Part shown: positions 47,501 to 48,911 of the stretch, piece after piece | How the letters are laid out: each line of letters opens with the position of its first letter | How positions within the stretch are numbered: position 1 is the stretch's first letter | Source of the DNA: Saccostrea cucullata | Lineage: Eukaryota | Assembly (NCBI RefSeq): GCF_032062105.1 | Contig: NW_026922705.1 | Span: 62,001-126,000 of the forward strand | Reading direction: 5' to 3' | DNA length: 64,000 bases | Position numbers and translations under genes: made by a program | Notes under the pieces: model-generated | Databases searched by the model: none | The model's input: only the letters and a program-made list of their open reading frames with translations | Told to the model about the DNA's origin: nothing

Positions 47501-48834
47501 TCTTTTTCCTTTTCACTGTAATTTTTTCTACTTTGCTGTTTACATAGCCTTTCCTTCTCAAGCTGCTCTACATTGTCTCTTTTCTTTCTCTTTGCTTCTC
47601 TTTCTTTTAAACAAAACTTTGTATTTAGTCTTGCCTTGTTCATACATTTAGAGGTACTTTCTCTATCCTTGACCTTTGCCTCAGGATTTTCTCTGACCTT
47701 CTGCTTGGAAGCAAGTTCTTTCTCTTTAAATTCTTTACATTTTCTTGCCTTGTTCATACATTTTGAGGTACTTTCTCTGTCCTTGACCTTTGTCTCGGGA
47801 TTTTTTCTGACCCTTCTTTTACATTCAAGCTCTTTTTCTTTAAACTCTCTGTTTTGCCTTGCTTTGTTTTTACTTTTCAAAGTGCTATCTCTATCCTTCT
47901 GCTTTGTCTCAGGATTTTCTCTTACCCTTCTTTTACAATCAAGCTCTTTTTCTTTAAACTCTCTGTTTTTCCTTGCTTTGTTTTTACTTTTCAAAGTACT
48001 GTCTCTATCCTTCTGCTTTGTCTCAGGATTTTCTCTGTCCCTTTGTTTGGAAGCAAGTTCTCTCTCTTTAAATTCTTTACTTTGCCTTGCCTTGGTCATA
48101 CTTCTTAAAGTACTTTCTTTGTCTCTCTGTTTTATCTGCGAGTTTTCCCTCCTTTTCCTCATATAATTTCTCATATAATCATTTCGAATTCTTTGTGATG
48201 ATTCAGAAATGATACATTTTCTAGACATGTTCTCTTGGAAGTTGAAGTATTTGTGAATTAAGGAAAGTCTCTCAGTTCCTGAAGTGGGTACACTTGTTTT
48301 TTGTGTTACAAACACTGGTTGAATCTCAAACTGGCTTATCATGGAAATATTACAAATTTGATAAAATGCAAACATGTAATCCACAAGTTGATCAATATTA
48401 CTGAAAGTGATTTTAATAGCCCTACCATCAGCACATGAAAGACCGTCCTCTCCATGAGAATGTGAATCAAACAATACAGGACAGTTAATGTCATTCACAT
48501 ATATTGCTGAGCAAATTCCTCCAACTATAATTAATCCTTGATTATACCTTCTAAAGAGCAGCTCAATTCCTTCCTTCAAATTATTACTTTGACATGACTG
48601 ATCCCAATCTATATGTGTCACAGTTCCATAAATCTGTTCAAAATAGCTTATTTCATACTGGCTGCCACGCACATAGACAGACTTGGGAAGTTCTTGAAAT
48701 TGGAACATTTTTGAAACAAATTGAACAGTTGATTGTAATTCTGCAATTCTAACTCTAAATAACTCATCCCCACAAAAGAGCACCTGATCAAGTTCTGGTG
48801 ACGTGGATGCATTTTGCAAAATGATGGACATCAA
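44554..48834 (-). CDS. Helentron Rep segment (1426 aa ORF: DUB C-terminal part, charged repeats, Zn finger, HUH replication initiator)
   Basis: HUH motif [57 protein letters not shown]. Confidence 0.9.
   Translation of the reverse strand: [1426 protein letters not shown]
47625..48140 (-). repeat. Coding tandem repeat, 114-bp (38-aa) unit, ~4.5 copies
   Basis: [38 protein letters not shown]-type units. ctctatccttctgctttgtctc recurs at ~47889 and 48003. Confidence 0.9.
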
Positions 48835-48911
48835 AGCATTGCATGTGCACTGAACTCCTCGAGAAAAAGATTGAAATAAATTATTTGCTTGATTAATTGT
48901 TCAAAATAATC

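Follow-up and report, generated by a model that had tools for sequence, protein, structure and literature searches.

Deubiquitinase domains of the VTD (viral tegument-like) type are known from transposons of the Helentron group. Erven et al. 2022 (PMC9741609) reported 1,221 non-viral VTD homologues, which belong for the most part to Helentrons and have vertebrates, insects, cnidarians and molluscs as hosts; pseudogenised homologues were noted as well, and VTDs were solved and assayed; all three zebrafish Helentron VTDs that were tested proved to be active ubiquitin isopeptidases. In the HELIANO study, Herpes_teg_N, the Pfam name of this family, was found to share the open reading frame (ORF) of RepHel almost only in HLE2 elements, with enrichment in subgroup b, and DUF6570 was described as an HLE2 marker (PMC11417382), whereas Ser in Rep motif 2 is regarded as diagnostic for Helentrons (PMC4067079). 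Here we describe a locus of this kind on a stretch of 64,000 nucleotides from the oyster Saccostrea cucullata (contig NW_026922705.1, positions 62,001 to 126,000 of the forward strand), the whole of which is referred to as the window. We are highly confident that the gene at 42267..49272 on its minus strand is a dead copy of a VTD-bearing bivalve Helentron, intact copies of which most likely deubiquitinate.

The assignment of the domain to the VTD family and of the gene to the Helentrons is, in our judgement, practically beyond doubt. The limits of the domain and its key residues were mapped as follows.

48295..48915, minus strand: VTD / Herpes_teg_N (peptidase C76-like) deubiquitinase domain (Pfam, 8ADD alignment, conservation in 187 domains, AlphaFold2, fold matches)
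48891, minus strand: putative oxyanion Gln (aligned to 8ADD)
48849, minus strand: catalytic Cys (aligned to C322 of DrT1-VTD2)
48696/48693, minus strand: Q-E pair where DrT1-VTD2 has D376-E377 (8ADD alignment)
48468, minus strand: Asp of the D-x-H motif (aligned to D-x-H of DrT1-VTD2)
48462, minus strand: His of the D-x-H motif (aligned to D-x-H of DrT1-VTD2)

Peptidase C76 is the MEROPS synonym of the family name and also appears in one match description. On the stop-free stretch, the Pfam model Herpes_teg_N (PF04843) scores 32.3 bits against a cut-off of 25 (E=9.5e-8). A single-sequence search of the PDB gave one strong match, 8ADD (E=8.9e-20, query residues 7-198), and no herpesviral chain at E<=10. 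When the window sequence was aligned with 67 relatives of at most about 565 amino acids, the resulting 68-sequence profile reached 8ADD at 2e-79, four herpesviral entries named 'large tegument protein deneddylase' or M48 at 2.4e-12 to 2.5e-5, and 8ADB weakly, at 0.087. The AlphaFold2 model of the domain (48286-48900, pLDDT 95.0, pTM 0.92) has a papain-like alpha-beta-alpha fold, which superposes on 8ADD (TM 0.92, Z 29.7, 1.5 Å over 200 residues) and on M48 of murine cytomegalovirus (MCMV; 2J7Q, TM 0.77, Z 22.6, 2.9 Å over 192 residues). Matches to VTD1 of Waddlia (8ADB/8ADC) are more distant (Z 14-16, TM 0.51-0.54), and the next fold match, which is not a VTD, is AvrPphB (Z 13.0). By fold, 8ADD and M48 resemble the domain more than Waddlia VTD1 does, which places it in the Helitron/K48-type rather than the K6-type subclass. 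The structure 8ADD is that of the zebrafish Helentron domain DrT1-VTD2, for which the relationships to M48 and AvrPphB have likewise been reported (PMC9741609). A preliminary description of this locus had named the domain a VTD/Herpes_teg_N deubiquitinase, and Pfam, the sequence match to 8ADD and the fold matches all bear this out, with similarity found both in the profile of PF04843 and in the fold of M48.

Conservation of the active site was assessed in relatives, of which 241 of 275 proteins matched and contributed 261 domains; the 187 domains spanning both motifs were kept. In these, the Gln is retained in 178, the Cys in 181, the Asp in 186 and the His in 184, and after dereplication at 90% all four residues are present in 110 of 124 domains, with gaps counted as misses. 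A search of all six reading frames of the window found the motif pair Q..QC...FD[SP]H a single time, and none of 20,000 shuffles of the residues of the open frame produced it. In the model, Cys18 starts the helix 18-27 while D145 and H147 lie on the strand 141-149. It has previously been shown that the C322A, D451A and H453A changes abolish the activity of DrT1-VTD2 (PMC9741609), and a conserved oxyanion Gln is described for the herpesviral enzymes (PMC8123002); by analogy, the Gln at 48891 probably has an oxyanion role. Two near-invariant columns deviate in the window copy: at 48759 it has Phe for Tyr, as does its relative P0003, and at 48705 it has Phe in place of the Leu that P0003, P0005 and P0007 retain.

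The three peptides on which the preliminary description was based are all present, exactly as quoted, on the minus strand, in the reading frame to which the long Rep ORF belongs. This frame is open over 1,448 codons from stop to stop (44554-48900), but the called ORF of 1426 amino acids starts at a TTG (48834) five codons downstream of the Cys, and therefore a start-codon ORF caller drops the nucleophile; the first Met after the TGA at 48903 (48831) is also downstream of the Cys. The statement that the deubiquitinase lies hidden upstream of the called ORF is thus right as regards the catalytic Cys and overstated as regards the domain, since only about 26 of about 205 domain codons are 5' of the TTG and about 87% of the domain, including Asp-x-His (48468-48460), falls within the called ORF. 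Start-codon ORF calling can thus clip the catalytic Cys from a VTD domain.

The VTD is encoded near the 5' end of a single large gene, the parts of which are listed below in the direction of transcription; the Rep, helicase and endonuclease motifs are given their generic names.

42267..49272, minus strand: pseudogenised Helentron (HLE2) VTD-RepHel-endonuclease gene, running over about 2,330 codons from the ATG at 49272 to the TAA at 42269-42267 (alignment to P0005 and P0014)
49283..49300, minus strand: probable splice acceptor (pyrimidine tract and CAG) just 5' of the first ATG, upstream exon not located (sequence)
49081..49083, minus strand: first nonsense codon, TGA, codon 64 counting from the ATG, where P0003 and P0005 have Trp (alignment to relatives)
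48910..49049, minus strand: low-complexity repeats of 10 amino acids (30 nt), 4.7 copies, forming a linker ahead of the VTD (repeat scan)
48901..48903, minus strand: second nonsense codon, TGA, codon 124 counting from the ATG, in the column of the G-x-x-x-Q motif that holds G or A (alignment to relatives)
47630..48118, minus strand: Lys/Arg/Glu-rich tandem repeats of 38 amino acids (114 nt), 4.3 copies, in frame (repeat scan)
46816..47196, minus strand: DUF6570, a marker of HLE2, with a Cys-rich CTCC motif ahead of it (PF20209, E=3.2e-23)
45346..46473, minus strand: HUH Rep domain with motif 2 at 45927 and Y-x-x-x-Y-x-x-K near 45369 (PF14214, E=8.1e-28)
42905..44555, minus strand: PIF1-like SF1 helicase with Walker A at 44294 and DEISM at 44030 (PF05970, E=1.9e-20)
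42267..42904, minus strand: apurinic/apyrimidinic (AP)-type endonuclease (Exo_endo_phos) with motifs NARS, GIAES, GDFN and SD(H) (P0005 alignment, motifs)
42134..42188, no strand assigned: near-perfect hairpin with 27-bp arms about 80 nt past the stop, a candidate 3' terminal structure, unproven (inverted-repeat scan)

The start of the gene is marked by its relatives, as P0005 (2370 amino acids) and P0014 align from their own residue 1 at ATG 49272 and P0001 starts with M-P-R-K, as at the window ATG. The RefSeq models P0003 and P0004 enter the same N-L-V-M-P-R junction from differing upstream residues, and the number of 10-amino-acid repeats varies among relatives. Rep motif 2 (RG-S-P-H-x-H type) at 45927 holds the Helentron-type Ser, and the second Rep signature, F/Y-(w/l/y/k)-R, is matched in part, by F-R-R. 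Rep and PIF1, parted by a +1 frameshift, line up with relatives in which they form a single chain, and in a frameshift-aware alignment the endonuclease region is identical to residues 2030-2370 of P0005 at 289 of 337 residues (86%). The endonuclease fragment of the window scanned alone gave no match to PF03372; among relatives, P0028 scores 29 bits, above the cut-off of 24.5, and P0004 23 bits, below it. The proposed Helentron context is thereby upheld by coding features, namely the Ser of Rep motif 2, DUF6570 and the endonuclease. Likewise, the suggested fusion of deubiquitinase, HUH Rep, PIF1 helicase and AP endonuclease in about 2300 amino acids agrees with a gene of about 2,330 codons, but in the window copy it is not one open frame.

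The lesions of the window copy comprise two nonsense codons and five frameshifts, so an uninterrupted RepHel frame, as expected of an autonomous Helentron, is not found. The TGA at 48903-48901, in the frame of the Rep ORF, had been noticed before, whereas the TGA at 49083 is absent from the preliminary description. A +1 frameshift near 44556 separates Rep from the helicase, a +4 frameshift near 43210 breaks the PIF1 helicase again, and three more affect the endonuclease: +1 near 42548, -10 near 42371 and, within the His codon of its SD(H) motif, +5 near 42305. The window copy is a pseudogene, unable to encode the fusion protein or an active deubiquitinase, because translation from the ATG stops at codons 64 and 124 and the next Met (48831) is past the Cys. 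Single lesions may be assembly errors. Judging from the 96-97% identity of Rep to family members, the copy looks like a young insertion in neutral decay. The guess that the TGA at 48903 is a mutated GGA is well supported at the protein level: of the 187 domains, 137 have G in this column and 39 have A, with G in P0003, P0007, P0124 and P0014 and A in P0005, and P0003, 91% identical, is the sister sequence in the tree (support 0.93). The former Gly codon is favoured because the relatives mostly have G and GGA is one base from TGA; no Ala codon is one base away.

Relatives of the RepHel protein were collected at E<=1e-50 (1,062 proteins among 8,000 scored), of which the best 120 were listed. The best of those listed are proteins of Saccostrea cucullata and S. 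echinata that are 91-96% identical by the search measure, and by domain the identity to a Saccostrea RefSeq protein is 91-98%. Among the best 120 of the 1,062, a VTD match is present in 88, with all four residues in 75 and a partial domain in 13. In the other 32, the Cys-rich motif is either missing or follows at most 481 residues, compared with 642 in the window, and most of them look like N-terminally short predictions. LOC134232646 (P0003), LOC134276564 (P0005), LOC134251654 (P0007) and LOC133198057 (P0004), from S. cucullata or S. echinata, belong to the same family as the window gene; in P0003, P0005 and P0007 the VTD is 79-91% and Rep 96-97% identical to it. Unlike the window copy, with its 2 stops and 5 frameshifts, these predicted proteins have no stops, although gene models may skip lesions. 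P0004 does not have the first half of the VTD, and the endonuclease is cut short soon after its start in P0003 and P0007. In a tree built with FastTree from 125 of 188 rows, dereplicated at 90%, the window VTD nests among transposon-borne domains; no viral sequence was knowingly included, and the direction of transfer is not addressed by this tree.

Several observations were made alongside the collection of relatives. P0044 and P0094 ('Candidatus Thiodiazotropha') and P0020 ('invertebrate metagenome') are Helentron RepHel proteins under bacterial or metagenome labels and are probably host DNA in symbiont assemblies. P0171, P0187 and P0197 are long proteins with 3-5 VTD-like stretches and without RepHel domains, possibly like the multi-copy insect VTD proteins of Erven et al. 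(PMC9741609). A scan of prokaryotic contigs with the VTD domain as single query, which finds close relatives only, returned 100 pattern matches, 0 of which were confirmed by tblastn. In the viral structure library BFVD, the match with the highest TM-score and identity is Q06VS9 (810 amino acids, TM 0.86, 23%), an accession probably from an ascovirus block, and proteins of giant viruses (Indivirus, Tupanvirus, Catovirus) are weak fold matches (E 4e-4 to 1.4e-3). These weak matches in the structural models suggest that VTD-like folds may occur in DNA viruses other than herpesviruses.

How the locus compares with the described systems can be stated for each of them. The zebrafish domains DrT1-VTD1/2 and DrT2-VTD share with the window VTD the fold, the Q-C...D-x-H site and the E377 equivalent, and they likewise precede RepHel in elements whose C-terminal part is an AP endonuclease (PMC9741609, 8ADD). 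Unlike the zebrafish Helentrons, the window has one VTD and a bivalve host, and no OTU domain was found in the frames scanned; unlike DrT1-VTD2, to which it is 29% identical, its VTD has Gln at the D376 position and belongs to a pseudogenised copy. Elements of HLE2 subgroup b (PMC11417382) and Helentrons (PMC4067079) resemble the window gene in having an endonuclease, the Ser of motif 2 and a RepHel ORF that also encodes Herpes_teg_N and DUF6570, but differ from it in that no sub-terminal inverted repeats or T-T site were identified for the window element, and neither an RPA nor an OTU gene was seen among the window ORFs scanned. With the large tegument deubiquitinases of herpesviruses (M48 2J7Q, UL36, UL48, BPLF1, ORF64) the window VTD shares the fold and the reversed Cys-Asp-His site; unlike M48, with 13-14% identity, it is fused to a transposase and not to a capsid-binding tegument protein, and is not viral.

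The protein of an intact, Saccostrea-like copy would consist, in order, of an N-terminal linker, the VTD deubiquitinase, basic repeats, DUF6570, HUH Rep, the PIF1 helicase and the AP endonuclease. Its VTD would act as a papain-fold cysteine isopeptidase, with the Cys that opens helix 1 as nucleophile. Once activated by the D-x-H His, this Cys would attack the isopeptide bond of ubiquitin Gly76, and the upstream Gln would form the oxyanion hole. By analogy with the zebrafish enzymes, deubiquitinase activity of the intact oyster copies is very probable. Homology with those enzymes also suggests that K48 and K63 chains are most likely cleaved, perhaps K11 chains and possibly NEDD8, although the linkage preference and the biological role of the oyster enzyme are inferred. 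In the likeliest role, degradative ubiquitin would be stripped in cis from RepHel, or from factors at the transposition site, and these proteins would thereby live longer; we give such self-protection about an even chance. Escape from ubiquitin-dependent silencing or degradation had also been proposed in the preliminary description.

Several points weigh against the interpretation as a whole. Protection from proteasomal turnover is offered by Erven et al. (PMC9741609) as a possibility and not as a result, and no assay of a bivalve VTD was found in the literature accessible to us. The VTD diverges faster than Rep, with 34-37% against 63-68% identity to P0028, P0033 and P0085. The geometry of the triad is implied by the 1.5 Å superposition of the model on 8ADD. 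The E377 equivalent is kept, but the D376 equivalent is Gln in the window and in 5 of the 187 domains, whereas 147 of the 187 have D or E (after dereplication to 124: D 60, E 27, N 11, S 6, Q 5, other 15). The intact oyster enzyme may therefore be weaker or altered in specificity, since D376A strongly reduces the activity of DrT1-VTD2 (PMC9741609). Finally, without element termini the Helentron call rests on coding features. A comparison of 49300-58000 with 38000-42270, made without a shuffle control, gave scattered complementary words of 11-13 nt from flank to flank and no convincing sub-terminal inverted pair among 27 overlapping words of 11-16 nt, and a repeat scan of 36000-58000 did not reveal the element ends. 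The 291-nt region around the hairpin at 42134-42188 folds at z=-6.6. Beside it, an inverted repeat pair of 38 nt (41440-41477 / 41985-42022, 82%) and an inverted pair of 15 nt near 42017-42091 were observed, which are possibly a small inserted miniature inverted-repeat transposable element or part of the element 3' end.

The resemblance to herpesviral proteins raises the question of whether the VTD was recently captured by the element from a herpesvirus, such as an oyster malacoherpesvirus. The Pfam family bears the name of the herpesviral tegument proteins, and of 28 BFVD matches at E<=0.001 most are named herpesviral large tegument proteins, the best of these at E down to 1.9e-13. However, identity to the herpesviral domains is 12-22%, compared with 29% to 8ADD and up to 91% to bivalve transposon copies; no herpesviral chain accompanied 8ADD in the single-sequence search, and the window VTD groups with transposon-borne domains in the tree described above. 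In addition, there is no named malacoherpesvirus among the 28 matches (three are nameless), and transfer in the direction from Helitron to herpesvirus has been argued (PMC9741609). We therefore regard recent capture as extremely improbable, and on its sequence relationships the VTD is a transposon-type domain. The term viral-type in the preliminary description should not be taken to mean a viral origin, as the domain is much closer to transposon VTDs. An endogenous herpesviral element was also considered and rejected: the closest relatives are bivalve transposon proteins, and the neighbouring domains are Rep, helicase and endonuclease, not viral genes.

Two further alternatives concern what the domain does. 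An intact VTD could serve mainly as a self-processing protease that cuts the polyprotein of about 2,300 amino acids into Rep, helicase and endonuclease units, in line with the polyprotein processing common for viral deubiquitinases (PMC9741609) and with the subunit cleavage suggested for Helentron OTU proteases (PMC4067079). On the other hand, the three Helentron VTDs tested, all three of them, are ubiquitin isopeptidases, and self-cleavage is not reported in the accessible part of PMC9741609, nor was a search for cleavage sites made here; we consider this role very unlikely. It is also conceivable that the window copy itself is expressed, from a downstream Met or another acceptor, as a catalytically dead VTD-Rep fragment, given the open stretch of 1,448 codons between 48900 and 44557 and the inactive domesticated VTDs of insects, as in Drosophila testis (PMC9741609). 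Against this, the lesions are gene-wide, the identity of Rep to the family is as expected of young neutral decay, and the stop at codon 64 precedes the open stretch. Such a use of the fragment is highly improbable, and the reading of the window gene as a dead copy, with deubiquitinating intact relatives, is preferred.

The remainder of the window contains other repetitive elements. A tandem array of 145 bp (5.6 copies, 50516-51324) lies within a module at 50470-51475 (minus strand), preceded by a GTCY microsatellite and by a short inverted-repeat module near 51420-51460. This module resembles a non-autonomous Helentron of the HINE/Pearl-like kind, as in Crassostrea gigas (PMC7492417); it is located about 1.2 kb upstream of the Helentron ATG, either nested in or flanking the autonomous element, and a similar truncated module occurs at 52150-52190. 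Five satellite-like arrays of 155-177 bp (8205-8707, 9754-10492, 11180-11743, 19269-20345 and 22852-24083), two of them with a GTCY microsatellite ahead, are probably more HINE-type elements. A pol fragment of a retroelement is found at 34995-35735 (plus strand), in which an RNase H-like domain comes after the reverse transcriptase (PF00078, E=2.8e-23). The frame of 184 codons at 4825-5379 (minus strand) has weak helix-turn-helix matches (HTH_32, E=2e-4, below cut-off) and may be what is left of a DNA transposase. One tandem repeat family with a unit of 58 bp is represented at both 16568-16753 and 57081-57209, at a distance of 40 kb.

VTD Helentrons, the fusion, mollusc examples, the activity and the protection hypothesis were all published in 2022, so the finding is already known, and little is added as discovery, with near-identical Saccostrea proteins already carrying PF04843 in precomputed public domain lists. 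The words Crassostrea, Saccostrea, Pecten, mollusc and ascovirus do not occur in the text of the PMC9741609 supplements (figures aside), and none of the papers returned by our literature searches, with subscription journals outside their coverage, deals with a VTD from a bivalve or with what a VTD does in transposition.

The residual novelty is only the Gln at the D376 position in this subfamily. It is found in five relatives from Saccostrea, Pecten and one further source, down to 53% identity. NEDD8 has Ala at the position of ubiquitin Arg72. Because D376 and E377 grip the R-x-R tail of ubiquitin and NEDD8 has this Ala, the Saccostrea and Pecten enzymes with Gln could be deneddylases that prefer NEDD8 and switch off cullin-RING ligases. 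On present sequence comparisons we consider this unlikely: the Gln sequences do not form one clade in the tree, the D376 column varies within the family, and no salt bridge is visible in the structure of Waddlia VTD1 with ubiquitin (PMC9741609). If true, deneddylase Helentrons would represent a transposon counter-defence like that reported for BPLF1 of Epstein-Barr virus. The question of whether the deubiquitinase aids transposition is not made easier by a broken copy, and the young relatives resembling P0005, a cluster of 9 sequences, offer better material for it.

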